Shown here: positions 267 to 24,059 of the stretch, piece after piece
Layout of the letters: every line of letters starts with the position of its first letter
Position numbering within the stretch: position 1 is the stretch's first letter
Assembly (NCBI GenBank): GCA_964619405.1
Contig: CAZUCF010000004.1
Location: forward strand, 4,689 to 68,688
Length of the DNA stretch: 64,000 nt
From: an uncultured archaeon
GTDB lineage: Archaea > Iainarchaeota > Iainarchaeia > Iainarchaeales > JAAZKV01
Reading direction: 5' to 3'
The notes under the pieces: model-generated
The model's database searches: none
Seen by the model: the letters and a program-made list of their open reading frames with translations, nothing else
Told to the model about the DNA's origin: nothing
Position numbers and translations under genes: made by a program

Positions 267-836
267 ATGTTTTTGAATACAAGAGCCCAAGTTAATTCTC
301 CTTTTGAATTGCTTGTTGCTATAATAATAATGAGTTTTGTAATAATTATTGGTGCTCAAATGATTGCGAGTGCTAATGACCAAGTTTGTTTGGCTAGTGT
401 TGATAAAGCTATGAGTGAGTTTCAATCCAAGTTAGAGGATACTGCTGCGTACAGGACTTCAAACAAGTTTGATTTTAGGCCTGTTACTAATAGTTGTTAT
501 AATGAGAATAAATCAATAATGAAGATTGAGGCTATAAAAGATAATAGTAAGCGGTGTGGTGCTGTTTGTGGTAGAGCAATTGATTCTTGTTTTATATTTA
601 CTTTTAATGCTCCTGATGTTGCTGGTGGTTTTAAACAAAAGTGTTTGAACTTGCCTGCTTACACGAGTTTTATTAGTGATGGTTCTCTTTGTCCTACTAC
701 TGGAGAATTTGATGGGTATACTGCGATTGATCCTACTGGTGTTCAAGTAATTATTTATTCTGGAACATATGTTTTGAGGAATATTGCTCCTGCTGGCAAA
801 ACATATCCTGAGATTTGTACTTATTGGAAGAGATAG
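267..836 (+). CDS. Archaeal type IV pilin-like protein (class III signal peptide), Cys-rich
   Basis: N-terminus MFLNTRA|QVNSPFELLVAIIIMSFVIIIG: a short basic leader, A|Q junction, then a hydrophobic helix, as in archaeal prepilins. The mature part has 9 Cys. First gene of a tightly packed 4-gene operon. Confidence 0.6.
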   Translation: MFLNTRAQVNSPFELLVAIIIMSFVIIIGAQMIASANDQVCLASVDKAMSEFQSKLEDTAAYRTSNKFDFRPVTNSCYNENKSIMKIEAIKDNSKRCGAVCGRAIDSCFIFTFNAPDVAGGFKQKCLNLPAYTSFISDGSLCPTTGEFDGYTAIDPTGVQVIIYSGTYVLRNIAPAGKTYPEICTYWKR

Positions 837-857
837 TTTTTGTAGAAAGGTGTTTTT

Positions 858-1643
858 ATGTTGGGTTTTATTTTGAGTAAAATGCAAATGCTTCTTTTTG
901 CTACTGGAATATTTATTGTCGTTCTAATGTTTTTGAATTTTGTTTCGGGAATGGATTTAAGGAATGTTACTTCTAGTATGCTTGAATTAAATTCTCAAAT
1001 GATTTCTGGGCAGTTATCTAGTGAGCATGTTTGTTCTTTTCAAACAGCAACTATTCCAGAATTCTTTAATTATGGTTTAACTAGTAATAGATTGTATTAT
1101 GAACTAAATTTTTCCAGGGTTGATTTTGTTGATTATCAAAAATTGATTCTTTCTGTAAACGAATATAATAAAACAAATATTCTTGATGCTAAGAGTGTTA
1201 ATGTTTTCGGTAATATTGTTCTTATTGATCCGAGTTTTATTGCTTCTAGTGATCCTATTACGAGTAGTATGGTTGGGTTAGAAAAAATTTCTCTTTATCC
1301 GAGACAAGCATTAAAAGGGCAGGCTGTTGCACCGCCAAATGCTTTTGTTGCATTAAAAGAAGTTAATGGTGATAATTTGAGTTTGTATGTTATTCCTTGT
1401 ACTACTCTTGCAAAATCTTTTACTGATTCTTCTGGGAAAGTTTTTTCTTCAAATAATTGTGAGGAAAATGTTTTGAAGGTTGGTTGTTATTTGTTGAAAA
1501 AAGAGAAAGGCAATCCTGTTCCAAATGATAAATTAAGTACTTGTTTTTCAATTACAAATGAAATAATACAAGGTTTGGAAGGGACTACTCAATCAAGAAG
1601 TTTTTCTTGGAGTGATTGTTTAAATCACGGGTATGTTAGTTGA
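858..1643 (+). CDS. Pilus-operon protein with N-terminal hydrophobic anchor (possible minor pilin)
   Basis: GGTG Shine-Dalgarno 5 nt before the ATG. N-terminus LSKMQMLLFATGIFIVVLMFLNFV is a single hydrophobic helix, and the rest is predicted extracellular. No recognisable family motif. Confidence 0.4.
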   Translation: MLGFILSKMQMLLFATGIFIVVLMFLNFVSGMDLRNVTSSMLELNSQMISGQLSSEHVCSFQTATIPEFFNYGLTSNRLYYELNFSRVDFVDYQKLILSVNEYNKTNILDAKSVNVFGNIVLIDPSFIASSDPITSSMVGLEKISLYPRQALKGQAVAPPNAFVALKEVNGDNLSLYVIPCTTLAKSFTDSSGKVFSSNNCEENVLKVGCYLLKKEKGNPVPNDKLSTCFSITNEIIQGLEGTTQSRSFSWSDCLNHGYVS

Positions 1644-1655
1644 TTGGTGAATTAA

Positions 1656-2228
1656 ATGTTTTGTGAAAAAGGTTTTATTGGGGCTATTGGAGATGATTTG
1701 CCTTCTTTGATACCGATTATTATTGCATTGTTATTATTTTTTACTATTTTTTCAATTACTCTTAATACTTATAATGAAAAAAATGCTCTTTTAAGAAAAA
1801 ATATTTCTTTAATGAATATTTCAAGAGAATTAAAAGGAAACTCATTAATTTATAGTGTTGAACAATTTTCTGCAAATTGTGATAAAATAAAATTTAATAA
1901 ATATGGTGAAAATTTTATGGTTGCTATTTATTCGAACGAAACTATTGCTGAAATGTTTCAAGAGGGGAAAAACTTTTTAGATGATTTCAAAGAAGTTGAT
2001 CCAGAGTATCCTGAAGACAATACCAATTTTTTGAAAAGCGGGAATGATTTAATGGTTGAAGAAGCATTTTTTTGTTATTACCAAAAAATTGGTGGGCGCC
2101 AAATTAGTGATAAAAGAATTAGTTATCTTACAAGATTTTACCCTGTTGCTGTTCAAGAAAAAGTTTCTATTGAAGGAATTGATTATTTAATTATTTCTCC
2201 TGGAATAATGGTGATGGTGATTTGGTGA
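1656..2228 (+). CDS. Pilin-like protein with class III-type signal (KG|F)
   Basis: MFCEKG|FIGAIGDDLPSLIPIIIALLLFFTIF: basic residue plus Gly, then a hydrophobic helix. Overlaps the next gene by 7 nt, suggesting an operon. Confidence 0.45.
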   Translation: MFCEKGFIGAIGDDLPSLIPIIIALLLFFTIFSITLNTYNEKNALLRKNISLMNISRELKGNSLIYSVEQFSANCDKIKFNKYGENFMVAIYSNETIAEMFQEGKNFLDDFKEVDPEYPEDNTNFLKSGNDLMVEEAFFCYYQKIGGRQISDKRISYLTRFYPVAVQEKVSIEGIDYLIISPGIMVMVIW

Positions 2229-2953
2229 ATTGTAAAGGACAAGCTGCTCTAGTTGACTCAATTTTTTTTCTTACAATTGTTTCAATAGTTTGCACTACAT
2301 TATTTTTTTTTGCGATAAATTATGGGTTGTCAACAGAATCACAAATAAATTCTTTTTATTCAAAAGATTTTTCTAGTGATTTATTAAAAGTTATTACTTA
2401 TGTTAGTATTCCTAGGGATGAACAAACTATTGGTGAATCACAATTAACAGGTATTTTTCAGAGTGATTATTTGCTTGCTTTAATAAAAGAAGATTATTCT
2501 GATAAAAGAAAAATGTCTCCTTTGACAACAAAAGCAATTGTTAGAACGCTTGATAGTGTTGTAAAACCTTTTGATGCTTCAATAGATTATGCTTTTTTTT
2601 TGACGAGCGAGAGTGATAATGAATATTTGTTTTTGTTGCTTGCTACGCATGAATGTTCAAATTGGGTTGAAAATACATCCGGAAATCTTGTTTGTGATGT
2701 TGTTCAAAGAAAATATTTTTATTGCGAGCCCACAAACCAAAAAATTTTGGAAGAAAGAATTTTTCCTAAATTAAATAGGGTCGATAATTCAGTTGGGAAA
2801 ATAACTCTTTCAGAATCTGAGCGATCCGATTCACAAGGAAGGCCGTTTATTATTGGTTTTAGTGGTTGGATTGTTGTTGATATTCCTGAATTAAAACAAG
2901 ATTTTTTGTTGAGTGATAATGATTTTAATTGTGAATTAACTATGCCAAACTAA
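2222..2953 (+). CDS. Pilin-like protein with class III signal peptide (KG|Q)
   Basis: MVNCKG|QAALVDSIFFLTIVSIVCTTLFFFA is a canonical KGQ prepilin junction plus hydrophobic helix. Confidence 0.55.
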   Translation: MVNCKGQAALVDSIFFLTIVSIVCTTLFFFAINYGLSTESQINSFYSKDFSSDLLKVITYVSIPRDEQTIGESQLTGIFQSDYLLALIKEDYSDKRKMSPLTTKAIVRTLDSVVKPFDASIDYAFFLTSESDNEYLFLLLATHECSNWVENTSGNLVCDVVQRKYFYCEPTNQKILEERIFPKLNRVDNSVGKITLSESERSDSQGRPFIIGFSGWIVVDIPELKQDFLLSDNDFNCELTMPN

Positions 2954-5448: not shown

Positions 5449-5511
5449 TATTATGGGTTATTTGGAGAATTATATTTTGTAGTAGAAAATTGTGTTTTAT
5501 AAGGTGTGTTT

Positions 5512-11287: not shown

Positions 11288-12229
11288 TTAACCCATATTT
11301 TGTGCGAGAAAAAAACAAGTGAATGCTATTGGCACTATTATTAAAGCGTAAACCCAGAATTGTTTTTTATTACCTTCTTGTAAACCAAGAAAAAAACTGC
11401 TTAGTAATGCAAATTCAAAAATATATATTGTTGTTCCGAGTGAAGCAAGAGAAAAGATTTCTTTTCGTTCAATAGCACTCAAGCCAATTTCAAATCCTTC
11501 AGCAAAATTAAAATTGAATCCTGTTACCAAACCAATAATTATTCCAAGAATGCTTGGAACGATTAATGCTGATGATAATAACAAAGTGTATTTTGTTACA
11601 AGCATTACTGCTTGTTGTTCTCTAATAATTGCATTATTTTCCATTAAATCCTCTGAAATTTCTCTTAAAAAGTTAGACATTTCAGAACCGTTTTCGTAAC
11701 ATTGGATGAATACATCAATTATCCTATTGACAGTTTTACTATTATTCATTTTTTTTATTTTGTTTAAAGATTCTTTTACGCTTGAACCGTTTTTTATCTC
11801 AATATTTGCTCTTTCAAAATCTTCTCTTATCAAAGGAATTTCAATTTCACTCATTTTTTCAATATTTTTTATTATAGAATTTTCATCGCAAAAAACACTT
11901 ACTTCGAGTAAGAACTCTGGAATCATTGATTCTTTCTTTTTTTTTCGTTTCTCAAAAAAAATATCTTGCCATAAATAATTCAAAAAAAATGGTGAAAAAA
12001 ATAATAGTCCTGAAACAAAAATAGTTTTGTTTAATTCTATGCCCGTATAAAAAAGAATTATCATTGAAATAATTGTTACAAATAAACCTTCTATTATACA
12101 AAAATAAATAAATTTGTTTATTTTTTCAAATCTTGAATTATTGAGTATTAATTTGTTTTTAAAGAGTTCCATTTTTTCGTTTCCAAGAATATATTGAAAA
12201 ATATTTTCAAAAAGTTTTGTTGCATCCAT
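11288..12229 (-). CDS. Type IV filament platform protein, TadC/FlaJ-like (T2SS-F domain)
   Basis: Polytopic membrane protein with a cytoplasmic helical domain between TM blocks. Last gene of the ATPase-platform-platform operon, 1-nt gap to the previous gene. Confidence 0.6.
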   Translation of the reverse strand: MDATKLFENIFQYILGNEKMELFKNKLILNNSRFEKINKFIYFCIIEGLFVTIISMIILFYTGIELNKTIFVSGLLFFSPFFLNYLWQDIFFEKRKKKKESMIPEFLLEVSVFCDENSIIKNIEKMSEIEIPLIREDFERANIEIKNGSSVKESLNKIKKMNNSKTVNRIIDVFIQCYENGSEMSNFLREISEDLMENNAIIREQQAVMLVTKYTLLLSSALIVPSILGIIIGLVTGFNFNFAEGFEIGLSAIERKEIFSLASLGTTIYIFEFALLSSFFLGLQEGNKKQFWVYALIIVPIAFTCFFLAQNMG

Positions 12230-12230
12230 A

Positions 12231-13175
12231 TTATTGCCTCAAAAATAATGGTGTTTTTGAATTAATTGATAATAAAACAATTAAATCTATTGAAGGAAAA
12301 CCAATAACCATTATCAAAAAAATTTGTATTGCATTGAATTGTATTTCCATAAAGTAACTGCCAATTAGAATAAAACTCGCGAACATTGCGGGTACAATCG
12401 CTGACACTGCTATGAAAACAAGTGCAAAGACTATTAGTTTTCCACCAAATTCCTTGCTTTCTATTCTTTGTCTTAACAATAATTCGTCAGCAAACTTCTT
12501 CAAACCAAAAGTATCATTGCCATGTTGATAAATATTATACAAATTACTATTAGTTCTTTTAATATTCAAAGAATTAAATTTTTTGTTCATTGTTGTTAAA
12601 GCATCTTTGAATGACAAACCATTCTCAACAAGTCTTATAATTATTCCATATTCTTTTGCTGTAACATTGTCTTCCATAGAACATTTTTTTATTGCGCTCA
12701 TTAAATCTTTCCCAACTTTTAATTCGGTAACAAGATTCATCAAGAAAAAGCTAAGATTCACTTCAACTTTTTTAGTGTATTTTTTGTGTTTTAATATTGG
12801 AATATTTATTGCAATTAAAAATATTATTGTGAAAAAACCAAACATTATTCCAAAACTCAAAAGAATATTGTGTGTGTAAAGCCAACCAAACAATAAAATA
12901 AATAATGAAGAAATAATTGTGTAAGAAAAACATTTCTTTTTGTATTCTTCAAAATCTTTTTTTCGCAAATCAGCTTTTTTAACAGTGTTATCTTCCAAAA
13001 AAGATTTTTCTGAAATCTTTTTGAAAAAATTTTTTGAATTATTTTTTTTATTATTTGCGCTTTGTTGGTTTTGGACATGATTATTTGTTTCAGTATTATT
13101 TGTTTCAGTATTATTTGTTTCAGTATTATTTGTTTTAGTATTATTTGTTTTTATAAATTCTTTTCCAATTTTCAT
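12231..13175 (-). CDS. Type IV filament platform protein, TadB/FlaJ-like, with N-terminal (TNNTE)n repeat
   Basis: Same architecture as 11288..12229. The ATG at 13175 overlaps the ATPase stop as ATGA; the ORF track offers an alternative start at 13190. Confidence 0.6.
   Translation of the reverse strand: MKIGKEFIKTNNTKTNNTETNNTETNNTETNNHVQNQQSANNKKNNSKNFFKKISEKSFLEDNTVKKADLRKKDFEEYKKKCFSYTIISSLFILLFGWLYTHNILLSFGIMFGFFTIIFLIAINIPILKHKKYTKKVEVNLSFFLMNLVTELKVGKDLMSAIKKCSMEDNVTAKEYGIIIRLVENGLSFKDALTTMNKKFNSLNIKRTNSNLYNIYQHGNDTFGLKKFADELLLRQRIESKEFGGKLIVFALVFIAVSAIVPAMFASFILIGSYFMEIQFNAIQIFLIMVIGFPSIDLIVLLSINSKTPLFLRQ
13078..13152 (-). repeat. In-frame 15-bp tandem repeat (4-5 copies) encoding TNNTE
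   Basis: CAGTATTATTTGTTT repeated on the + strand. Confidence 0.9.
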
Positions 13176-14593
13176 ATTACTTCTCCGCATGATAATTCAA
13201 AAAATTCTCTAAAAGAAATACTATTACTCATTTTTTCTAAAACTTTTTCTTTTTTCCTCAAAATTTTTTCATAATCTTTTTTGTTACAAGAAAAAGTTTG
13301 CATTATTTTTTCACTTAACCTCAAAGATTCGTTTGTTTTTTCTAAACAATTTGTTTTGTGATTAAAACAAAATAATTTTAACAATTTCAAAGAATTATTT
13401 TGTTCTTGTTGTTCTTTAAAAACTTCACAAATTTCAACTACTTTTCTTTCTTCTCTCCTCAAACCAGTTTTCGCGTTAATACGAGTAATTCTTTTTTGAA
13501 CTAATATTAAATCAAGTGATTTTAAAGCATTTTTTTCAATTCCAAAAGAATTTAATCTTTGAAAAGCTTCTTCGGAATTTTCTGCGTGAAAAGTAGCATA
13601 ACTTCCTTTTGCTTGTCCAGCAAGCATTGTGTTGATAAAAGATTTTGCTTCATCCTTGCTTCTTACTTCGCCAACAATTACTCTATCTGGTCTCATTCTA
13701 AAAGTGTTTTCAATTAATTTTTCTAAACCAATATTTAGGTTTTCTGCTGTATTCAATTTTACTATGTGCTCTTGTGGTAAAACAATTTCTGGTGTTTCTT
13801 CTACAACTACAATTCTCTCGTCTTTTGGTAGGAAACAAAACAATGAGTTGAGAGTAGTTGTTTTTCCTGAACCAGTGTTACCGCAAACAAGTATTGATGA
13901 TGATGTTTGCATTACTAACCACAAAAAAGCCATTGCTTTTGCATTAATAGTACCAAAATCAATTATATTTAATGGTGTTAAAGGGTTTTCCTTAAATTTT
14001 CTTATTGTCGCGTTTATTCCTGTGAAAGCGATTGGATCCATTGAAGCATTTAACCTTGAACCGTTATTCAAAGTTGCATTAAGAATTGGGTTATTAAAAC
14101 TTAGTTGTCTTCCTAATGGGGAAGAAATCCTGTTGATTATTGTTTTTATTTTTTCGTCAGAGTTAAAATAAATGTTGCTTGTTAGCCAACCAAAAATATT
14201 GTGGTAGAGCATTATTGGTTTGTTTTTTCCATTTATAACAATTTCTTCAAAATCAGGATCATTCAACAATGGTTCTAAAATACTATTTCCTATTGTTTCC
14301 CACTCTAAAACAAGAGACATTTTTTCTCTTTGGTCTTTTCTCAAAAGAACATAATTTTCTAGACAAAAATCTTTTATTAGAAAATAAATATCTGACTTGT
14401 TCTTAATTATTTTTTTTGTTTCCTTTATTTCTTTTAATATTTCTGAAAAAAACTTTTTTTCTTTGTCATTGAATAAAGGAAAGTCTAATAAAAAGTAATT
14501 CTTCTCACGTTTTTTTACTATTTCCCCGCTAGAACTCTTACTAACTTTTTTTGAATAATCAATGCTTGAAATAAAAAAACCTATTTCTTTCAT
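13172..14593 (-). CDS. FlaI/TadA/VirB11-type secretion ATPase (type IV filament assembly ATPase)
   Basis: Walker A GNTGSGKTTTLNSL, Walker B-like RIVVVEETPEI, and MRPDRVIVGEVR, which is typical of type II/IV secretion NTPases. Confidence 0.85.
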   Translation of the reverse strand: MKEIGFFISSIDYSKKVSKSSSGEIVKKREKNYFLLDFPLFNDKEKKFFSEILKEIKETKKIIKNKSDIYFLIKDFCLENYVLLRKDQREKMSLVLEWETIGNSILEPLLNDPDFEEIVINGKNKPIMLYHNIFGWLTSNIYFNSDEKIKTIINRISSPLGRQLSFNNPILNATLNNGSRLNASMDPIAFTGINATIRKFKENPLTPLNIIDFGTINAKAMAFLWLVMQTSSSILVCGNTGSGKTTTLNSLFCFLPKDERIVVVEETPEIVLPQEHIVKLNTAENLNIGLEKLIENTFRMRPDRVIVGEVRSKDEAKSFINTMLAGQAKGSYATFHAENSEEAFQRLNSFGIEKNALKSLDLILVQKRITRINAKTGLRREERKVVEICEVFKEQQEQNNSLKLLKLFCFNHKTNCLEKTNESLRLSEKIMQTFSCNKKDYEKILRKKEKVLEKMSNSISFREFFELSCGEVI

Positions 14594-14958: not shown

Positions 14959-16629
14959 TTATTCTATTTGACAAGTAAAATCTGGAATGTACTCTAAAGA
15001 TAAAGGCGATTCATAATTAAAAGCTTGGCAAGAATTTACTTGGCTAACATCCCAACCACTAAGGTCTTGGTTAAAAAATGTTGAAAAAGCAAACATTGTT
15101 GTCATGTCTGTTACTTTGCTTACATTCCAGTCACCAATATTTTGGTTGAAATAAGTGTTAAATGAAAACATTGAATTCATAGACATTACTGAACTTACAT
15201 CCCAATTAGATATGTTTGCATTGAATTGAGAATAATAAAACATATAATCCATTGATTTAACTAAACTTACATTCCAATCATTTATTGGCTGATTAAAAGC
15301 TGAATTCGCAAACATTGTATCCATGTATTCTACTGAACTTACATTCCAATTATTAATTGGTTGATTAAATGAAGCTAGTCTAAACATAAGAGTCATATCG
15401 GTTACATTACTTACATCCCAATTGTTAATATCTTTATTAAAAGAGGCTTCTTGGAACATTTCAAGCATGGTTGTTACATTACTTACATCCCATGAACCAA
15501 TTTCTTGATTGAAAACAGATCCAAAAAACATTGCAGTCATATCTGTTACTTTGCTTACATTCCAATCATTTATTGGTTGATTAAAAAAATCATTGCCTTG
15601 AAATAATCTCCCCATATCGATTACATTGCTTACATCCCATAAACCAATATCTTGATTAAATTCACTATAAGAAAACATTCCGTGCATGGTTGTTACATTG
15701 CTAGTATCCCAATTACTTATGTCTTGATTAAAATAACTCTGGTAAAACATAAAATCCATGTCAGTAACATTTTGTGAGGTTTCATCAAAAAAATCTTGAG
15801 AACTAAAATTTGAAACAACTGTTCGCGTGAACATTTGGTTTGCTGATGTAATGCCAGTTACACTATTGCTTATTGGAGTAAAAATATCACTTAATAATTG
15901 GGGTGTGCAATCATAACTTTCATCTCCAAAAGATATTCTACTTGCTTGTCCTCTTAAAGAAATATTGTAATCTCCTGCTGAAGGATATGTTTTTGATCTA
16001 GTTGAACTACCATCTACTAAATTCTCCCAACCATTTCCTAAACCCCAATTTATTTGCATTCCAACTGCATCATCAATAAAGAATTTAAAGTCTTGATTTT
16101 CTCCAGTAGTCGTTATTTGGAATGTAAATGGAATTATTGGTTCTATTGGTGTTTTTGTTGTTGTTATTTCTGTTTGGCAGTTAACTGTTATTGTTTGGGT
16201 TATTTTTTTTGTTAGGCCGTGTTGTGTTGTGTATTCTATTTGGAAGTTGCATGTTTTTTTTGTTTGTCCTGTTTCGCATTGGCATAAGTTGTTTATGTTT
16301 ATTAGTTCTGTGTTTCCTTGTACCCATTGTTCGTTATCGTATTCTTGTGTTCCTTCTTCTGTTGTTATTTTTGTTAGTGTGAGTGTTTCTCCTGAATTGT
16401 TTTTTAGGTTTAGTATTCCTTCTGTTTCGTAATCAGCGATTGCATCTATAATGCTTATTCCGCTTGAGCCTATTGTTCCTTTGAGTTGTTCGTTTGTGTT
16501 AAGTATTTGTGTTTGGTCGAATAGGTTTGTTGATAGGTTTGCTACTATTAAACCGATTACTACTATTATTGCTATTACTATTAAGTATTCTGTTGTGCCC
16601 TATGCTTTTTTAAAATAATAATTTTTCAT
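14959..16629 (-). pseudogene. Class III signal peptide + DUF285/BspA-type repeat adhesin, interrupted by an in-frame TAG at codon 10
   Basis: My translation from ATG 16629 gives MKNYYFKKA-TAG-GTTEYLIVIAIIVVIGLIVANLS... This frame runs open for 180 codons with no ATG/GTG/TTG into the ORF-track ORF (Met at 16059). About 11 copies of the 26-residue unit FNQxIxxWDVSxVTxMxxMF follow (DUF285, bacterial surface protein 26-residue repeat). Confidence 0.65.
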
Positions 16630-16664
16630 TATAATAATTATGTAATTATCTTTTATTAATTTTC

Positions 16665-17006
16665 CTACCAAGTAATTTTGTCGTCAATTTTTATTTTTTT
16701 GTTTTTACCATTAGGCATTTCAATAAAATATTTTGCTGGTTTTTTAGGAGTATAATTTGGCATGAATGGTTGTAATGTTACCTTATCAACAACTATTTTT
16801 TCTTTATTTAAAAAAATAATATCTATTGGGAAGAAAACAAATATCATGTGAACTGAACTACTTATTCTACTCTCTGATTGGTTTTCAAAAATTAATGCGT
16901 AATTAAATTTTTTTGCATCCTCAAACATTAGGCCTTTCATTCTTTCCCAAGAAGTTTTTGTTAGTCTTGTTCGCAAGCCAATGCTTTTACCATTTATTTT
17001 TAACAT
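16665..17006 (-). CDS. DUF192 family protein
   Basis: KGLMFE..., HMIFVFFPIDIIFL..., AKYFIEMPNG match the DUF192/COG1430 pattern. Confidence 0.6.
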   Translation of the reverse strand: MLKINGKSIGLRTRLTKTSWERMKGLMFEDAKKFNYALIFENQSESRISSSVHMIFVFFPIDIIFLNKEKIVVDKVTLQPFMPNYTPKKPAKYFIEMPNGKNKKIKIDDKITW

Positions 17007-17016
17007 TTTTAATCAA

Positions 17017-17202
17017 CTATTTTAACAAGTCTAATGATGGAACTTTTATTTCTTCAAGAATTTTTTTGGTTTTCGTTGGGTTACTCTCAATATTATTAAA
17101 CCTTTTTTTTTCTAATTCTTTAGTCATCTCATCTATTTCAACCATTTTTTTTCTTAGGTTAGAAATTATTGCTCCAATTTCTTTTTCATTGCTTGAATCC
17201 AT
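17017..17202 (-). CDS. Small charged coiled-coil protein, hypothetical
   Basis: 61-aa K/E-rich ORF 10 nt upstream of DUF192. No family motif recognised. Confidence 0.3.
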   Translation of the reverse strand: MDSSNEKEIGAIISNLRKKMVEIDEMTKELEKKRFNNIESNPTKTKKILEEIKVPSLDLLK

Positions 17203-17239
17203 GTATATATTACTTCTTTTCTAATTAAAAACTTTTAGT

Positions 17240-17290
17240 GCGGCCAGTTTTGCCAGCCAGTTTTGCCAGCCAGTTTTGTCAGCCAGTTTC
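17240..17290 (+). repeat. 13-bp tandem repeat GCCAGCCAGTTTT (about 4 copies) in a GC-richer intergenic island
   Basis: GCGGCCAGTTTT GCCAGCCAGTTTT GCCAGCCAGTTTT GTCAGCCAGTTTC. The GC content stands out against the AT-rich surroundings. Confidence 0.85.
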
Positions 17291-17377
17291 GTCTAGGCGA
17301 ACGAGAGCGAGTTAATTGTTATTAACTCACTTTAATTATTTTTGATTAGTTTTCACTTAGAATATTATTTTAATAAT

Positions 17378-17414
17378 ATTATTTTAATACTTCTCCTGTT
17401 TCATTACTCCAAAA
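17378..17414 (-). other. Degenerate duplicate of the 3' end of ogg (last 11 codons plus stop)
   Basis: 17381-17414 aligns to 17646-17679 with 3 mismatches in 34 bp. The - strand reads FWSNETGEVLK-stop, the same as the C-terminus of 17644..18273. Confidence 0.8.
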
Positions 17415-17448
17415 GGCTCCTTTCGCCGAAACTTTTCAAAAAAGTTTC

Positions 17449-17569
17449 ATCAAAATTTTGCTAGCTTTTATTAAAAGCTGTGTCGGAGCGAGTCAGGGTA
17501 CTTTCAGTACCCTTGATTTTTTTGTTTTAAACTTTTTTTTATCAAAATTTTGCTAGCTTTTATTAAAAG
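17449..17569 (+). repeat. Two identical 29-bp direct repeats separated by 63 bp
   Basis: ATCAAAATTTTGCTAGCTTTTATTAAAAG occurs at 17449-17477 and 17541-17569. Each copy contains the internal palindrome GCTTTTATTAAAAGC. Confidence 0.85.
17495..17523 (+). terminator. Hairpin plus T7 run (intrinsic-terminator-like) with no annotated + strand gene upstream
   Basis: AGGGTAC, TTTCA, GTACCCT, then TGATTTTTTT. Confidence 0.35.
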
Positions 17570-17643
17570 TCATACTATAACAAAGTACTTACTAATTGTT
17601 AAATCAATTAACAGAATACAAATGTTAAGGTAGTGTAGAAAGA

Positions 17644-18273
17644 TTATTTTAGTACTTCTCCAGTCTCATTACTCCAAAAAATTAGATCTAGTTCAGTAAA
17701 ATTAATATTGTTTTTTTCACAAAAATTTTTCATTAAATTTTCTATTTCCTCGTATTTTTTCTTGTTAAGATTTTTTGGAATTTCTTTTATTACATTACAT
17801 TTAACCAAATTTTTTAGTATGTGCCTGTCAAGGATAGCAACGTCTTCAAAAAAACCAATGTTTCTCAAAAAGTGGCTTGCTTCTTTCATTCCAAAACCAT
17901 TGACATTTTTTATTAAGAATTCGCGACATTTAATTGGTTTTTCTAAAATTCCTTCGTTAATTAAAATTTTTTTTAATTTTTCTTTTGGAAATTGGGTTTG
18001 TATTAATTCTAATCGCCTAGCCTTTGTTATGTAGAATCTTATGTTTTTTAAATACTTTTCTTTTTCTTTTGCTTTGCCTTTAAATAATAAATTATTTTCT
18101 TTTAAAGCATTAATACATTTAGTTGCTCCTTTTGCAGAACTTTGTGGTGTTAGAATACAATAACACATTTCTTCAAAAATTTTTTCTTCGTCTTTCCAAA
18201 CAGATTTATAACTTCTAAGCGCTTTTTTAACTTCTTTTTGAATTTTGGGTTTAGCAAAACAAATATTATTCAT
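17644..18273 (-). CDS. ogg: 8-oxoguanine DNA glycosylase/AP lyase, archaeal Ogg2 type (HhH-GPD)
   Basis: CILTPQSSAK, VNGFGMKEASHFLRNIG (helix-hairpin-helix with catalytic Lys) and AILDRH (catalytic Asp). Confidence 0.8.
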   Translation of the reverse strand: MNNICFAKPKIQKEVKKALRSYKSVWKDEEKIFEEMCYCILTPQSSAKGATKCINALKENNLLFKGKAKEKEKYLKNIRFYITKARRLELIQTQFPKEKLKKILINEGILEKPIKCREFLIKNVNGFGMKEASHFLRNIGFFEDVAILDRHILKNLVKCNVIKEIPKNLNKKKYEEIENLMKNFCEKNNINFTELDLIFWSNETGEVLK

Positions 18274-18276
18274 TTT

Positions 18277-18798
18277 TTAACCCATAATCAATTCATCAGT
18301 GTTATAAATATTTTCAACATATTCTTCAAACAATTTAACATGTGTTTGTTCAAAATCAGCTAACTCTGAGAAAAAAAAACTAACTTTTCCTTTTGTCTTC
18401 TCGCTTGCTTTTCTGTAAAAATCCTCTGCTTTTTTTTCTCTCCACAAAGCAAATAACAAAGAAGTCATTTCGTCTTTTCCAGCAGGAATAGAACGTATTT
18501 CTGGAGCAGTATTTCTTGGAAAATTAAATTCTTTTATTTCTGCATTATTCTCTATTTCGGATTTTAATTCTAAGATTTTGTTCAAGTGCATTTCCTCTTC
18601 TTTTACCATGAAAGCAAAAAATGATTCAAGTTCATTACCCTTATTTTTTTCTAATTCTTTTAAATAAAAATCTCCGCTTGTTCTCTCAACATGCTCGGCC
18701 AAATTCAATGCATTAATAATGCTCTCTTTTGAATCAGAGTCCAATTTGTTTATTACTTCTAAAATTTCTTTGCTTTGTATAAAATCCATTTTTCGCAC
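18277..18798 (-). CDS. Rubrerythrin/ferritin-like diiron protein
   Basis: Two E...ExxH pairs (EEMH; EQTH) in a four-helix-like layout. Separated from ogg by 3 nt. Confidence 0.55.
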   Translation of the reverse strand: MRKMDFIQSKEILEVINKLDSDSKESIINALNLAEHVERTSGDFYLKELEKNKGNELESFFAFMVKEEEMHLNKILELKSEIENNAEIKEFNFPRNTAPEIRSIPAGKDEMTSLLFALWREKKAEDFYRKASEKTKGKVSFFFSELADFEQTHVKLFEEYVENIYNTDELIMG

Positions 18799-18918
18799 CT
18801 TCTATAATTAACCTTTATTAGAATCCTTTTTTATTTGTTTTTATCTTTAAAAAATTATAAAAAAGAGTAGAGTTGATTTATTATTAAATTTTTAGTTAAA
18901 ATTTTTTTATTCTGTTTT

Positions 18919-21030
18919 TCATTTTAGTATTGGGTAATTGTCGTTTACTCTCATCCAGTCATTTACAAAGTTCCAATCGTTTTCTGGGTTAGAATTGTGT
19001 TGCATTGGAACATTGTAATCTCCATCAATTTTTGGGAAGAAAGCATCTGGTTCTGAATTATCATTATTTTTTCCAAAGCAATTATTACAATTTCCGTTTC
19101 CACAACAAACAGTTTGGTTTGTTCTAGTAATATCCCAATAACAATTTGTTATGTTTGAATCTGTTGTATTGGATCCAGTAATTCCTCCTTTTTCATAGTC
19201 TCCAGTAATGTTTCCACTAGCATATGAGTTTGTTATGTTTGAATCTGAATTGTATCCTGTTATTCCTCCAATCCAAAGTTTTCCATTTGTAATTCCTGTT
19301 GTATATGCGTTTGTTATAAGTGAATTAAAATTGGCTCCTGTTATTCCCCCGATATAATTTTCTCCGGTTGTGTTTCCTGTTGTATACAAATTTTTTATTG
19401 TTGGGTAATAAGTAGGAAGGTGTGGATTTGTTATTCGTAGATTGTATCCTATTATTCCTCCAACATAGTTTAATCCGTTTGTATCTCCAGCGGTATGTGA
19501 ATTTGTTATTGATGCGTTGTTATTGTAACCAGTTATTCCTCCGACATAAGTTTCTCCGTTTGTTTTTCCTATGGTAAATGAGTTTGTTATTGTTGAATTA
19601 TCATTTCTACCAGTTATTCCTCCGACATTTTCTGTTCCTGTTGTGTTTCCTGTTGTATATGAATCTGTTGTCATTGAAGCATAAGCAATTCCTGTTATTC
19701 CTCCGGTATAAGTTTCTCCGGTCGTGTTTCCTGTTGTATATGAATTTGTTATTGTTGATACAAAAGAATAGCCGGTTATTCCTCCGACAGCTTCTGTTCC
19801 GGTTGTGTTTCCTGTTGTTTGCGAGTTTGTTATGTTTGAATCATAATCAAATCCTATTATTCCTCCGGTATAAGTTTTTCCGGTTGTGTTTCCTGTTGTT
19901 TGCGAGTTTGTTATTGTTGAATTAGCATTGTAACCTATTATTCCACCAGTATAATGTTTTCCAAATATATTATTGTCTGTTAATTTTAATTTATCTATTT
20001 TTGCATTGCTTGTAACACCAATTAATCCAATAAAATTTTCGTCTGGTCTGTTGATGTATAATTTTTGTATTGCAAAATTGTTTCCATTCAAAGTTCCGTT
20101 AAATGCAAATTGCATATTTCCTCCATTTGTTGAAATACAGGATTCATTTAATCCGCAATTTCCAATTGGTTCCCAACCTAAACCATTATTCCATTCTCTT
20201 GTTGGAGTAGCATCAATATTATTCATTAAAATATAATTTCCATTTAGTTTTTCTCTCACTCTGTTAAGGTCGTGTAAATTATATATTTCTATTAAATCAT
20301 TTATTACAAAATATTTTTGTGTTCCTTCAAAAAGATTATTGTTGGAATCTTGGCATTGGATATTCCAATTGTGTGTTCCATTTGAAAATGTTTCAACGTT
20401 TTGTTCAAAAAAGTTTTCCTCGTTTTTTCGTATGTTATAATTAGAATCTATCCAATTGTCATTAATAAGTAAACCACAATAGTTTATTTCAGTATTACTT
20501 TGTGGTTTGTAAATAAAAGTTATTATTCCTGTTGAGTATTCGTCGTTGTTAGGAGTTAATAATGTAATAATATTTGCAAAAATTAATTTATTCACATCAA
20601 AATATTTTTGTGTTCCTTCGAACCAATTATTGTTTGAATCTTGGCATTTAATATTCCAATTGTATGTTCCATTTGAAAATGTTTCAACGTTTTGTTCAAA
20701 AAAGTTTTCCTCGTTTTTTCTTATGTTATCATTAGAATCTATTGGTTGGCCATCAATAATTAAGTTGCATAAATTTATTTCGGTATTACTTTGTGGTTTG
20801 TAAACAAAAGTTATTGTTCCTGCAGAGTATTCGTCGTTGTCAGGAGTCAATAATACAATGTTATTCTCATTTTCCAAATTTAATTTATCGCCTATTGTTT
20901 GTGTTATTGACGTCATAAGGTTTGTTGGAAAAAGAGATACTATTGTAACGACACCAATTATTCCAACTATTATTAACAAGTACTCTATTGCTACTTGTGC
21001 AAAAAGTTTTTCATTGTTCAATGTTTTCAT
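18919..21030 (-). CDS. Class III signal peptide + duplicated Ig-like domain + GLUG-motif repeat adhesin-like protein
   Basis: N-terminus MKTLNNEKLFA|QVAIEYLLIIVGIIGVVTIV is a prepilin-type signal. Two domains of about 90 aa are near-identical. More than 10 repeats of TNSxTTGNTTGxxYTGGI(T/I)G follow (GLUG-like). Confidence 0.7.
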   Translation of the reverse strand: MKTLNNEKLFAQVAIEYLLIIVGIIGVVTIVSLFPTNLMTSITQTIGDKLNLENENNIVLLTPDNDEYSAGTITFVYKPQSNTEINLCNLIIDGQPIDSNDNIRKNEENFFEQNVETFSNGTYNWNIKCQDSNNNWFEGTQKYFDVNKLIFANIITLLTPNNDEYSTGIITFIYKPQSNTEINYCGLLINDNWIDSNYNIRKNEENFFEQNVETFSNGTHNWNIQCQDSNNNLFEGTQKYFVINDLIEIYNLHDLNRVREKLNGNYILMNNIDATPTREWNNGLGWEPIGNCGLNESCISTNGGNMQFAFNGTLNGNNFAIQKLYINRPDENFIGLIGVTSNAKIDKLKLTDNNIFGKHYTGGIIGYNANSTITNSQTTGNTTGKTYTGGIIGFDYDSNITNSQTTGNTTGTEAVGGITGYSFVSTITNSYTTGNTTGETYTGGITGIAYASMTTDSYTTGNTTGTENVGGITGRNDNSTITNSFTIGKTNGETYVGGITGYNNNASITNSHTAGDTNGLNYVGGIIGYNLRITNPHLPTYYPTIKNLYTTGNTTGENYIGGITGANFNSLITNAYTTGITNGKLWIGGITGYNSDSNITNSYASGNITGDYEKGGITGSNTTDSNITNCYWDITRTNQTVCCGNGNCNNCFGKNNDNSEPDAFFPKIDGDYNVPMQHNSNPENDWNFVNDWMRVNDNYPILK
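20304..20868 (-). repeat. Intragenic tandem duplication (two units of about 280 bp) encoding near-identical domains
   Basis: LLTPDNDEYSAGTITFVYKPQSNTEIN...GTYNWNIKCQDSNNNWFEGTQKYF compared with LLTPNNDEYSTGIITFIYKPQSNTEIN...GTHNWNIQCQDSNNNLFEGTQKYF. Long identical DNA runs are visible, for example around 20380-20440 and 20660-20720. Confidence 0.85.
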
Positions 21031-21925: not shown

Positions 21926-21998
21926 AGCCCTGTCGTCTAGTGGCCAAGGATATCCGGTTCTGGGCCGGGTGACCCCAGTTCAAATCTGGGCAGGGCTA
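21926..21998 (+). tRNA. tRNA-Gln (anticodon CUG), 73 nt, no encoded CCA
   Basis: Hand-folded cloverleaf. Acceptor AGCCCTG/CAGGGCT, D arm GTCT/GGAT, anticodon arm TCCGG-TTCTGGG-CCGGG, T arm CCCAG-TTCAAAT-CTGGG, discriminator A. Confidence 0.9.
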
Positions 21999-22721
21999 TT
22001 TCTTGCATTTAACATACCAATCCCACGGTTCTTTTTCACTTGGAAAATACCTTTGCCCTGCTTGGAACCAGTCTTTCCACTTGTACCTTACTTTGCTTAC
22101 CTCTATTTCCTTAAAACCTGTTTTCTCAAATCGATGTAATATTTCGAACCTGTAAAACGCTTTTTGTTTTTCGCCTTCAAAATTAATTGTCCCATTAAAG
22201 AAATCAATCTTGTTTTTTTTAAAAAATTCTTTTCTTGGTATTTTTAATCCCAAAGCTTTTTTTTCGTTAGCAATCATTTCTTGGTAAATATAAGATTCTA
22301 TTGATGGTAAAATACAAATGAGTGTTCCATTTTCTTTTAATAATTCAAAAGTGTTTTCAATCATTTTATTTAATTTTATTTGATTTGGTTCTAGCAAAGA
22401 GTTAACAGCTATTACTACATCAAAAATATTTTTTTCGTTTAAATCAATAATGTTTTTTACTTCAAAAAAAACATTTTTTAATTCAGCATTTTTTTTCATT
22501 GCTTTCTCAATCATTTTTTCAGAGTAATCCCACGCGTGAACCTCATCAAAATTTTTGCTCAGAAAAGGTATTATTTCTCCTATCCCACAACCTAATTCAA
22601 CAATTTTGCCATTAAAACTTTGTAGATCATCAAACAATGGATTACTCAAAGAATTTTTTAGTGGGCTTATCACATCATCATAATAATTTTCAGCACTGTT
22701 ATTCCAATTATTATTACTCAT
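21996..22721 (-). CDS. Class I SAM-dependent methyltransferase
   Basis: Motif I VELGCGIGE and a typical downstream acidic loop. The TAG stop overlaps the tRNA 3' end by 3 nt on the opposite strand. Confidence 0.6.
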   Translation of the reverse strand: MSNNNWNNSAENYYDDVISPLKNSLSNPLFDDLQSFNGKIVELGCGIGEIIPFLSKNFDEVHAWDYSEKMIEKAMKKNAELKNVFFEVKNIIDLNEKNIFDVVIAVNSLLEPNQIKLNKMIENTFELLKENGTLICILPSIESYIYQEMIANEKKALGLKIPRKEFFKKNKIDFFNGTINFEGEKQKAFYRFEILHRFEKTGFKEIEVSKVRYKWKDWFQAGQRYFPSEKEPWDWYVKCKK

Positions 22722-22916: not shown

Positions 22917-24059
22917 TTAGCTTCTTGCTATTCCTAAAAGTGTTTTTGCCATGAACCAATAAGCAGGTTTTTTTGCTAGTTTTCCAACAAATTTGCTTGG
23001 CTCGTCCATGTTGCCTTCTTGTTCCAAAAATTCTTCAATACCCTTGGCTTTTAGTTTCTCAAACAATTTGTCTATCTCATTATTATCCAAGCTATTAGCA
23101 TATTTTCTTATCTTCCAATGCATTTTCAATTCTTTGTTAACATTAGACAATCTTTTTTCGTAATCACTTAATTTAGCCTTCTTTTTTATTGTGTCAGCAA
23201 TTGTTTCCCCAAGAATGTTCCCTGCTTTCATTCCGAAAACAATTCCTCCCCCTGTACTTGCTTTTACTTGGAAGGCCGCGTCTCCAACGAGAGCAATATT
23301 ATCTTTTTGTATTTCTTCTAATGGTAAACCATATGGTATTAATGATGATTTTGTTGAAAAAACTTTTGCATCAGGAATTTTTTGTGTTATAAATTCTTTA
23401 AAATTAGTTGTAATGTTTTCTCCAAGAATGTTTCCCAAACCAATTCTTGCTTTTTTTTCATTAATGGGGATAACCCATGCAAAAAAACCTTTTGCGAAAT
23501 CACCCAAGTATAATTGCGCGTATTCTTTTTCAAAGTTTCCTATACAATTAGCTTGTATTGTGTGAACAAAATTTTCTCTTGTTGTTCTTAAACCAATTAA
23601 ATGTCTAACCGTTGAGTTTACTCCGTCTGCTCCAACAATGTACTCTGCTTTACGCATTTCTCCTCTTTCATTAGATTGAACAAACAAAGTGTTTTTTCTA
23701 ATATCTAAGAGCTTTGTGTTTGTTGAAACATGAATATTCTTGTTCCTTGCTATTTTTAATAATTCTAAATCAAATTTTTTTCTATCAACAACATATGCTA
23801 CTGTGTTTGGTCGAGTTACTTTTAATTCAACTCCGCTTGGAGAAAAAATTTTTGCTCCCCTGATTTTGTTTTGTATTACTTCATCCAAACCAAGTTTGTA
23901 TTCGTCTAAACCAGTTTTTGATATTAATCCTGAACAATTTTCAGGAGTCCCTACTTGTTCATGTTCTTCTAAAACAATAGAATCAAAGCCCTCTTCTTTT
24001 AATTTTATTGCTGTTGCCAATCCAGCTGGTCCCGCACCAATAATTGCTACAGTATTCAT
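22917..24059 (-). CDS. Geranylgeranyl reductase family flavoprotein
   Basis: VAIIGAGPAGLATAIKL...LEE (FAD dinucleotide fold) and GADGVNSTVR. Size and layout match archaeal digeranylgeranylglycerophospholipid reductases. Confidence 0.8.
   Translation of the reverse strand: MNTVAIIGAGPAGLATAIKLKEEGFDSIVLEEHEQVGTPENCSGLISKTGLDEYKLGLDEVIQNKIRGAKIFSPSGVELKVTRPNTVAYVVDRKKFDLELLKIARNKNIHVSTNTKLLDIRKNTLFVQSNERGEMRKAEYIVGADGVNSTVRHLIGLRTTRENFVHTIQANCIGNFEKEYAQLYLGDFAKGFFAWVIPINEKKARIGLGNILGENITTNFKEFITQKIPDAKVFSTKSSLIPYGLPLEEIQKDNIALVGDAAFQVKASTGGGIVFGMKAGNILGETIADTIKKKAKLSDYEKRLSNVNKELKMHWKIRKYANSLDNNEIDKLFEKLKAKGIEEFLEQEGNMDEPSKFVGKLAKKPAYWFMAKTLLGIARS

Follow-up and report, generated by a model that had tools for sequence, protein, structure and literature searches.

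Modular type IV pilins, exemplified by PilB and PilC of Streptococcus sanguinis, were described in a survey that covered bacteria only and left the archaea outside (Raynaud et al. 2021; PMC8179133), and the TadE/F/G proteins of the Tad/Flp pili, together with the 'adaptable tips' of the Myxococcus Kil system, constitute a second bacterial case (Herrou et al. 2025; PMC12075869). In archaea, the EppA substrates of Methanococcus maripaludis (DUF361/PF04021) carry a leader of 5-13 amino acids (aa) followed by Gln at position +1 and Glu at +5, have no Tyr at +6 and, for the major pilin and three of the six pilin-like proteins studied, are about 55-65 aa long when mature (PMC3875500). A single ATPase with a two-gene platform characterizes the archaeal 'System 1' (Epd type) of methanogens, Thermococcales and some DPANN (bioRxiv 10.64898/2026.04.22.720090; PMC3875500), while the Sulfolobus sugar-binding proteins with class III signals have been proposed to form bindosome-like assemblies (bioRxiv 10.64898/2026.04.22.720090). 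In this study we examine a stretch of 64,000 nucleotides (contig CAZUCF010000004.1; hereafter the window) whose source, a DPANN archaeon, belongs to the phylum Iainarchaeota and is related at the genus level to Candidatus Iainarchaeum sp. STD2_46. The window encodes a DUF285-repeat protein and a GLUG-repeat protein, both starting like prepilins, and a filament ATPase with two platform proteins. Our analyses indicate that these repeat proteins are probably modular class III-signal proteins handled by an Epd/Tad-like machine, exposing their cargo likely from the filament tip, and that their family would form a variable adhesin repertoire.

The initial annotation presented them as two giant adhesin-type proteins with prepilin signals, fused to an archaeal pilin module. 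At 556 and 703 aa they are mid-sized, and only the GLUG open reading frame (ORF) is intact, the DUF285 copy having a nonsense codon at the first residue of the predicted mature protein, a position that the initial annotation wrote as 'x'. The genes and their parts are as follows:

14959..16629, minus strand: gene of the putative DUF285/PARCEL modular pilin, 556 codons, with TAG at codon 10
16600..16602, minus strand: the TAG that interrupts the frame, at position +1 of the predicted mature protein
16105..16599, minus strand: pilin-like head module, made of a hydrophobic alpha-1 helix, a beta-sandwich of ~110 aa with four conserved Cys, and a Thr/Pro linker
14995..15762, minus strand: DUF285/PARCEL repeat solenoid, the cargo, with 10 repeats of ~25 aa
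18919..21030, minus strand: GLUG protein gene, an intact ORF of 703 aa with the N-terminus MKTLNNEKLFAQVAIEYLLIIVGIIGVV
20998..21030, minus strand: predicted 11-residue leader of the GLUG protein, with predicted cleavage after Ala11
20307..20854, minus strand: two beta-rich, Ig-like stalk domains of ~97 aa, a 291-bp tandem duplication with 87% identity between copies (Tandem Repeats Finder)
19081..20283, minus strand: GLUG beta-helix, the cargo, with ~10 repeats of 27 aa

The reading of both N-termini as class III signals, already put forward in the initial annotation, is well supported by sequence comparison. Both leaders (MKNYYFKKA in the DUF285 protein, MKTLNNEKLFA in the GLUG protein) are short, contain basic residues, end in Ala and are placed before the hydrophobic stretch. 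When the N-terminal 51-mers were compared with Pfam, PF04021 (Class_IIIsignal; gathering score 23.7 bits) was the best match of both, at 21.5 bits for the DUF285 protein (E=2.2e-4) and 19.0 bits for the GLUG protein (E=1.4e-3); these scores being sub-threshold, the class III case therefore rests on the relatives. Indeed, 151 of the 152 related proteins examined keep the junction, Ala (128) or Gly (23) followed by the block QGTIEYLV, here written (A/G)/QGTIEYLV with the second slash at the predicted cut, together with the hydrophobic helix, and the sole exception is an N-terminally truncated protein, so that the initial annotation's concern that homologs might lack junction and helix was not borne out. 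Glu5 and Tyr6 are found in both window proteins and in 149 of these 151 relatives, whose family leaders range from 4 to 80 aa (median 10). A near-invariant block thus precedes the hydrophobic stretch, while the leader ahead of it varies in length, which favours a class III signal over a Sec signal. Two copies of the junction-plus-helix motif are present in the window against none in 100 shuffles of it, and no AxA-type site was found after the helix. PF04021 matches 26 of the 97 top family members at E<=1e-3, and its gathering score is reached by relatives, namely a stand-alone pilin from another archaeal locus (L078; 26.3 bits) and one further protein (23.7 bits).

The bacterial N_methyl signal (PF07963; IPR012902) had no match in the window proteins and is present in the bacterial GLUG relatives P0043, P0073 and P0083. 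GLUG homologs are mostly bacterial, with Sec or type IX secretion system (T9SS) signals; several archaeal ones, from Ca. Iainarchaeum and from metagenome-assembled genomes (MAGs) classified merely as 'archaeon', start with A/QGTIEYL[IV]I[IL]AI, which is the N-terminus of the window DUF285 protein and not that of the window GLUG protein. In one head-plus-GLUG protein (P0084, from Ca. Iainarchaeum sp., JAQVNZ010000002.1; its head lies in locus L007) the leader contains a junction-like motif three times, MQNNKAQGTIKNFSKKFHQNNSAQGTIGNFLKKFHQKNNAQGTIEYL, and only the last copy has EYL and the helix behind it; a similar duplication is seen in P0181.

The DUF285 protein consists of a head (residues 10-165), the linker TEITTTKTPIEPIIP, a PKD-like stretch and the DUF285 repeats. 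A word-indexed search with its N-terminal 256 aa returned 3 matches only. A profile built from 11 aligned heads (A1) and searched against 1.84 billion representative proteins matched 1300 clusters at E<=1e-3 (counted at 50% identity), 707 at E<=1e-10 and 187 at E<=1e-30; in essentially every protein (median length 527 aa) the profile matched the N-terminus. By this profile, the DUF285 protein is a member of a large archaeal head family, apparently not described before, whose genes are now annotated as 'GLUG motif-containing' or 'hypothetical'; a full-text literature search found no paper joining GLUG, archaea and pilins, and none on this head family in Iainarchaeota or DPANN. All 76 head-family loci from species-representative genomes are archaeal MAGs, those with names being Ca. 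Iainarchaeum and Ca. Forterrea (Iainarchaeota, DPANN/Nanobdellati), archaeal housekeeping genes flank the head genes, and one record labelled 'Planctomycetales' is a duplicate of an archaeal contig. Besides the cargo-bearing proteins, the family comprises stand-alone members of pilin size (126-168 aa).

Structure prediction of the N-terminus, proposed in the initial annotation as a check, yielded for the DUF285 head a helix and a beta-sandwich that resemble archaeal pilins at modest scores. AlphaFold2, run on the head alignment, predicted a helix at 3-37 and a seven-strand sandwich (mean predicted local distance difference test score, pLDDT, 78; sandwich 85-92). Foldseek matches in the PDB (top 20) include pili of Pyrobaculum calidifontis, P. 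arsenaticum, Sulfolobus acidocaldarius (Aap) and S. islandicus, as well as Halobacterium archaellin and FlaF/FlaG; near the top of the list are the archaeal pilins 8fk7, 8q30, 6nav and 6w8u, whose TM-scores lie at only 0.32-0.49. The predicted head fold is compatible with an archaeal pilin, short of proof. Behind the head, the repeats of the DUF285 protein, read with the TAG as a residue, match Pfam DUF285 (PF03382) at E=1.4e-80 (267 bits, cutoff 25) and the NCBIfam PARCEL repeat TIGR02167 at 90.6 (cutoff 30), while the BspA-type family LRR_5 (PF13306) had no match at E<=0.01; of the label 'DUF285/BspA-type', the first half stands and the second is unsupported.

The GLUG protein is built differently, since the leader and QVAIEYLL with the rest of the hydrophobic helix are followed by two Ig-like repeats and a GLUG beta-helix of ~400 aa, so that fusion to a pilin module holds for the DUF285 protein (head helix and sandwich) and extends in the GLUG protein to leader and helix only. 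Its +1 Gln is encoded by CAA at 20995-20997 and is followed by Glu at +5 and Tyr at +6, a junction that fits both EppA-type substrates (+1 Gln, +5 Glu; PMC3875500) and the consensus of the head family. The repeats were correctly named, Pfam Glug (PF07581) matching at E=8e-21 (73.4 bits, cutoff 20.5). AlphaFold2 predicted a helix at 7-32, stalk domains of low-to-medium confidence and a beta-helix at 250-650 with pLDDT >95, which Foldseek matched to the GLUG domains of IgA1 proteases (3n6z, 7uvk, 6xja); a peptidase domain is not present in the protein. The 291-bp duplication that encodes the stalk domains is recent and accounts for the 220 residues that follow the helix. We considered these Ig-like repeats as a diverged pilin head and rejected the idea, as hhalign gave a probability of 14% against the head sandwich. 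Because it combines a helix lacking the head sandwich with Ig-like repeats and a GLUG beta-helix, the GLUG protein resembles the helix of a Flp/Epd pilin, devoid of a globular domain, that bears a stalk and a beta-helix.

Across the head family the cargo is interchangeable. The head is joined to at least 20 Pfam families besides DUF285, and among 97 members the cargo comprises Glug (48), Peptidase_M26_N, a GLUG-rich region (21), DUF285 (3), SBBP propellers (3), Big_7 (3), Laminin_G_3 (2) and Flg_new (2), with single cases of a Kazal inhibitor, FG-GAP, NHL, Sialidase_N and others. Kazal domains are the cargo of P0122, the closest relative of the window head (64% identical in the head part), and head and DUF285 are combined in the intact proteins P0126, P0156, P0175, P0224 and P0256. 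Several head loci occur per genome, as reflected by a 946-kb and a 314-kb contig with four each, and 27 of the 79 loci scanned have 2-4 head genes inside the fetched stretch (<=10 kb either side). Head and cargo may also exist as separate adjacent genes, as in locus L067 (9956-12459), where a 238-aa head-only member is followed immediately, overlapping by 4 bp, by a GLUG-like protein of 596 aa with a Sec-like signal of its own, MKREIGIILILLFTIGFVFA; upstream, in divergent orientation, is a secretion-ATPase-like gene.

Comparison with the syntenic locus of Ca. Iainarchaeum sp. STD2_46 (L042), whose ATPase is 84% identical to that of the window, shows how these genes vary in position. L042 has two head-plus-cargo genes (a 931-aa GLUG protein and one of 935 aa) between geranylgeranyl reductase and UPP synthase, whereas the window GLUG gene is a different one on the opposite side of UPP synthase. 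Likewise, the window has an extra 1.76-kb segment holding the DUF285 gene which is missing from L042, where DUF192 is directly followed by the ATPase; no clear target-site duplication surrounds this segment, an apparent overlap of 55 bp being A-rich low-complexity sequence. Because their positions differ between the window and L042, the cargo genes are variable insertions in a conserved backbone, and the multi-copy, often tandem pattern, variable in position and cargo, fits a variable adhesin repertoire.

The filament ATPase and two platform proteins reported in the initial annotation at 11288-14593 were confirmed by one T2SSE and two single T2SSF assignments; four genes on the other strand had been called small and pilin-like:

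13172..14593, minus strand: assembly ATPase of archaeal FlaI/GspE2 and TadA/CpaF type, Pfam T2SSE E=6.5e-39
12231..13190, minus strand: platform protein 1, a single T2SSF domain (TadB/EpdJ-like), overlapping the ATPase gene by 19 bp
11288..12229, minus strand: platform protein 2, a single T2SSF domain (TadC/EpdK-like), Pfam T2SSF E=9.7e-8, above cutoff
267..2953, plus strand: four tightly packed ORFs of 189, 261, 190 and 243 aa, each with a hydrophobic segment at the N-terminus

In NCBIfam, the ATPase matches FlaI (E=3.7e-72) and the TadA family (E=1.2e-45), both below their cutoffs, and its nearest solved structures are Archaeoglobus GspE2 (2oap, 6.6e-52), Sulfolobus FlaI (4ii7) and Caulobacter CpaF (8rkd, 2e-43). 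Platform protein 1 matches Pfam T2SSF slightly below the cutoff (E=6.9e-5), with a weak match to UpsF. This layout is also that of bacterial TadA/B/C; RcpA secretin, TadZ, TadD and TadV are absent from the Pfam matches of the ~20 ORFs annotated between 267 and 26717, the only ones scanned. From its gene content, the machine is predicted to be an Epd/Tad-like type IV filament system, and within that group an archaeal Epd-like relative and not a Tad system. As for the four ORFs, the frames and hydrophobic N-termini are there, and the pilin assignment found no backing: they match no Pfam or NCBIfam family and not PF04021, have no homologs in 76 related loci and, when tried as members of the head family, were rejected, showing no relation to the head profile. 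They may be minor pilins.

In the window, 365 bp separate the DUF285 gene from the ATPase downstream of it, and head genes also lie near an ATPase operon in L042, L078 and L011. In L078, an uncultured archaeon MAG, the T2SSE ATPase, two single-T2SSF proteins and a complete 154-aa head-only pilin follow one another on one strand, the ATPase and platform genes being laid out as in the window. This pilin, which reads MDRKA/QGTIEYLVIIAIVVVIALVVV, is the one that passes PF04021 at 26.3 bits, and it matches the head profile in hhalign with 98.5% (E=3.8e-15). Two head-plus-cargo genes, one of them with a lectin-like Lcl_C domain, stand ~4 kb beyond the ATPase end of the L078 operon, and the syntenic L011 has three head-plus-GLUG genes in tandem.

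Taken as a mechanism, these parts would work as follows. In both proteins a short basic leader with Ala at its end precedes a Flp/EppA-type junction (+1 Gln, +5 Glu, +6 Tyr) and the alpha-1 helix, the +1 Gln of the DUF285 protein being the residue expected from its relatives where the window codon is TAG. Cleavage after Ala/Gly would be the work of a class III signal peptidase whose gene would lie outside the window, and the ATPase/platform machine would then pull the helix from the membrane and pack it into the filament core. In the DUF285 protein, helix and beta-sandwich would form the head, joined by a Thr/Pro linker to an interchangeable cargo (here the DUF285/PARCEL solenoid); in the GLUG protein, the helix would pass straight into the two Ig-like stalk domains and the GLUG beta-helix. 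As the shaft has no room for so bulky a cargo, such proteins would likely take the filament tip or a priming position, from where the cargo, held off the cell, could bind a host cell or particle. Cleavage, filament incorporation and binding are the steps we infer here.

Several observations weigh against this scheme. The cargo, at 400-550 aa, is incompatible with a filament shaft. The GLUG protein has leader and helix only, with no conserved pilin head, its N-terminal 262 aa had no detectable homologs in a word-indexed search, and its residue at -2 is Phe; since just 40 of 151 relatives have Lys or Arg there, these proteins would in many cases not satisfy the classical FlaFind rule for PibD/FlaK substrates. 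Both window N-termini stay under the PF04021 gathering score. The very top Foldseek matches of the head are PmoB/AmoB, a generic 'TM (transmembrane) helix plus sandwich'. Within the 64-kb window, a motif scan detected no GxGD-type prepilin peptidase, and no short Flp-like major pilin was found. The DUF285 copy, as assembled, cannot yield a headed protein. Finally, an ATPase homolog occurs within 10 kb of head genes in only 5 of 76 loci, about what chance predicts for 1-Mb genomes, and in L001 and L002 the head genes sit amid housekeeping genes. The co-occurrence that the initial annotation had proposed to survey is seen in the L078 operon, and a general linkage of head genes to ATPase operons is unsupported. 

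Some of these points would suit proteins that are class III-processed but not displayed on a pilus, with alpha-1 serving as a membrane anchor or building short bindosome-like pseudopili at the cell surface: the bulk of the cargo, the position of most family genes away from ATPase operons, the missing globular pilin domain of the GLUG protein and the archaeal precedent of class III signals on non-filament binding proteins (bioRxiv 10.64898/2026.04.22.720090). Nevertheless, the head sandwich is strongly conserved and also exists alone at pilin size, in one instance within an ATPase/platform operon, and the near-invariant +5 Glu and +6 Tyr are features of Flp/Epd-type filament subunits (PMC3875500), which make surface anchoring a possible but rather unlikely alternative to filament display. 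Far less credible, and in our view very improbable, is that both proteins start with an ordinary Sec signal peptide or signal anchor that resembles a prepilin signal by coincidence. The sub-threshold PF04021 matches of both window proteins would agree with it; against it stand the place of the conserved block before and not after the hydrophobic stretch, its near-invariance behind leaders of such different lengths, the lack of an AxA-type site behind the helix, the relatives that pass PF04021 and the absence of the motif from shuffled windows.

Display on the filament, which we continue to prefer, is a separate matter from whether the DUF285 copy of the window still works. Its frame reads MKNYYFKKA, the stop codon and then GTTEYLIVIAIIVVIG, and the next in-frame ATG, GTG or TTG after the TAG comes only at 16059, leaving as the sole callable ORF a headless one of 366 aa; gene callers will overlook the head of this disrupted gene. 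Among the 110 family genes that carry the head motif in the window and in 79 related loci, CAA stands at +1 in 72, CAG in 37 and TAG in the window gene alone, where +5 Glu and +6 Tyr are kept, and a single C-to-T transition (CAG to TAG) would explain the nonsense codon. Because the 547 codons past the TAG stay open, any inactivation must be recent or not real. That the gene functions in the living organism, the TAG being an assembly or consensus artefact, a minor allele, or read through or recoded, draws on those open codons, set against 65 and 48 stops in the other two frames, and on the single C/T difference from the expected CAG. On the other side, TAG terminates 13 of the 63 window ORFs of at least 100 aa, among them the neighbouring DUF192 gene, which has its TAG exactly where the ortholog of a close relative has TAA; none of the 109 other family genes has TAG at +1; the sole tRNA found in the window is a tRNA-Gln(CUG) and no suppressor; and consensus assemblies seldom carry substitution errors. 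An exact-pattern scan of metagenome contigs revealed no intact CAG allele, and a full-length DUF285 query recovered from metagenomes only unrelated DUF285 repeat proteins lacking the head. Recoding of the stop, including a pyrrolysine-type TAG, was rejected, as TAG is a common and orthologously placed stop here and unique at this site among the 110 genes. Functionality thus appears doubtful, and the gene as assembled is most likely, on its sequence, a very recent pseudogene or off allele.

The surroundings of the locus complete this description. Along the minus strand from 21030 to 11288, the reading order is the GLUG ORF (21030 to 18919), a rubrerythrin-like gene, an Ogg glycosylase gene, DUF192, the DUF285 frame, the ATPase and the two platform genes. 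Two further features are:

16665-17006, minus strand: DUF192 (COG1430) gene, 35 bp upstream of the DUF285 frame
21926-21998: tRNA-Gln(CUG)

Downstream of DUF192, the window has the DUF285 gene and then the ATPase; in L042, DUF192 (18858-19208; 72% identical to the window copy) stands directly upstream of the pilus ATPase. The tRNA decodes CAG, the codon apparently mutated to TAG in the DUF285 gene, and abuts a methyltransferase ORF on the opposite strand (21996-22721), whose end it overlaps by 3 bp. A stretch of ~440 bp between a 61-aa ORF and the Ogg gene (17203-17643) is devoid of ORFs and of Rfam matches; it holds a 13-bp tandem repeat, GCCAGTTTTGCCA, in 3.6 copies at 17243-17289, two copies of a direct repeat of ~30 bp, ATCAAAATTTTGCTAGCTTTTATTAAAAG, and G+C-rich hairpin-like segments. 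L042 has an HSP20 gene at this position, and no HSP20 homolog occurs anywhere in the window. The geranylgeranyl reductase ORF of L042 (7099-9846, 915 aa) contains an intein (Intein_splicing E=1.9e-19, with a LAGLIDADG homing endonuclease); its window ortholog (22917-24059, 380 aa) is intein-free.

Two other predicted surface proteins are encoded nearby. An ORF of 1546 aa (5506-10146) has a Sec-like N-terminus and SQNDA-type low-complexity repeats, matches no Pfam family and is clearly richer in G+C (0.35-0.36) than its surroundings (0.23-0.28), possibly being an acquired large surface protein. A protein of 859 aa (24138-26717; 57% identical in L042) combines a Sec-type signal with Big_13, fn3 and Big_7 domains and is, by these domains, predicted to be a second, conventionally secreted adhesin-like protein near the locus.

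To our knowledge, no member of the Iainarchaeota has been cultured, and the means by which DPANN archaea find and hold hosts or particles are largely unknown. The head family provides a concrete, sequence-defined candidate for such attachment, bearing swappable binding domains and occurring several times in a genome of ~1 Mb. With it, the 'modular pilin' principle, so far known from bacteria, would reach archaeal Epd-like filaments, which supports the idea that cargo grafted on pilins is a general solution for very small cells. More tentatively, Iainarchaeota might maintain a large, fast-turnover, multi-copy repertoire of modular pilins, in which one Epd/Flp-type, Cys-stapled head plugs adhesin, lectin or inhibitor cargo on a minimal pilus tip for host recognition and attachment, copies being gained, lost or silenced between strains, for which the CAG-to-TAG change would be an example; such a repertoire would be the archaeal counterpart of the 'adaptable tips' of Myxococcus.

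The initial annotation knew of no characterised system of this kind, but the concept has precedents: it matches bacterial modular pilins, Tad tips with TadG, and archaeal class III substrate-binding proteins. With the modular pilins (PMC8179133) it shares a small N-terminal pilin module, a short linker and a bulky adhesion module predicted at the tip, as well as many cargo architectures on one carrier, a design also common in ultrasmall bacteria of the Candidate Phyla Radiation (CPR). The window proteins would thus follow the modular-pilin design (module, linker and non-pilus domain) outside the bacterial set. They differ in having the archaeal PF04021/EppA type of signal (A/QGTIEYL) in place of the bacterial N_methyl one (G/FTLIE; IPR012902), a beta-sandwich head instead of an alpha-beta roll, and an archaeal ATPase with a split platform.

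The Tad/Flp pili are of a lineage related to archaeal Epd pili and likewise combine a split TadB/TadC platform with a CpaF-like ATPase; they include large TadG/KilN-type pilins with variable C-terminal domains, in paralogous sets proposed to contact other cells, and the Flp motif of +5 Glu and +6 Tyr is present in the window proteins. However, they are bacterial, of diderm cells, and have a secretin and other parts that are absent from the ORFs scanned here, and their tips are heterotrimers of three distinct minor pilins, in contrast to the one conserved head that bears the cargo here. Equivalents of TadE/F were not identified, leaving aside the unassigned ORFs at 267-2953. The Epd/EppA system of M. 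maripaludis (PMC3875500) has the same short leader ending in Gly or Ala with +1 Gln and +5 Glu, and the same arrangement of an ATPase and two platform genes in one locus with pilin genes scattered on the chromosome. No EppA gene was seen in the window, and, compared with the Methanococcus pilins, the head family has a near-invariant Tyr6, a conserved sandwich head and a cargo of 300-1400 aa.

The archaeal bindosome also involves functional, non-structural proteins with class III signals, proposed to 'functionalise' a type IV filament machine, but its cargo is of the ABC-type solute-binding kind, for nutrient capture, whereas adhesin-type cargo (GLUG beta-helix, DUF285 solenoid, lectins, propellers, Kazal) and a pilin-like sandwich in the head are predicted here. 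As regards the cargo itself, the GLUG beta-helix of the IgA1 proteases (M26; 6xja, 7uvk, 3n6z) belongs to the same family as that of the window protein, which has no M26 peptidase domain, and the DUF285/PARCEL surface lipoproteins of Mycoplasma and Listeria share the repeat family of the other cargo; these relatives are anchored through a Sec signal, lipobox, LPXTG or T9SS signal, in place of the prepilin-type helix seen here. The principle of cargo on a pilin is thus already established in bacteria and in archaeal class III binding proteins, and its archaeal version built on the head family appears to be new.

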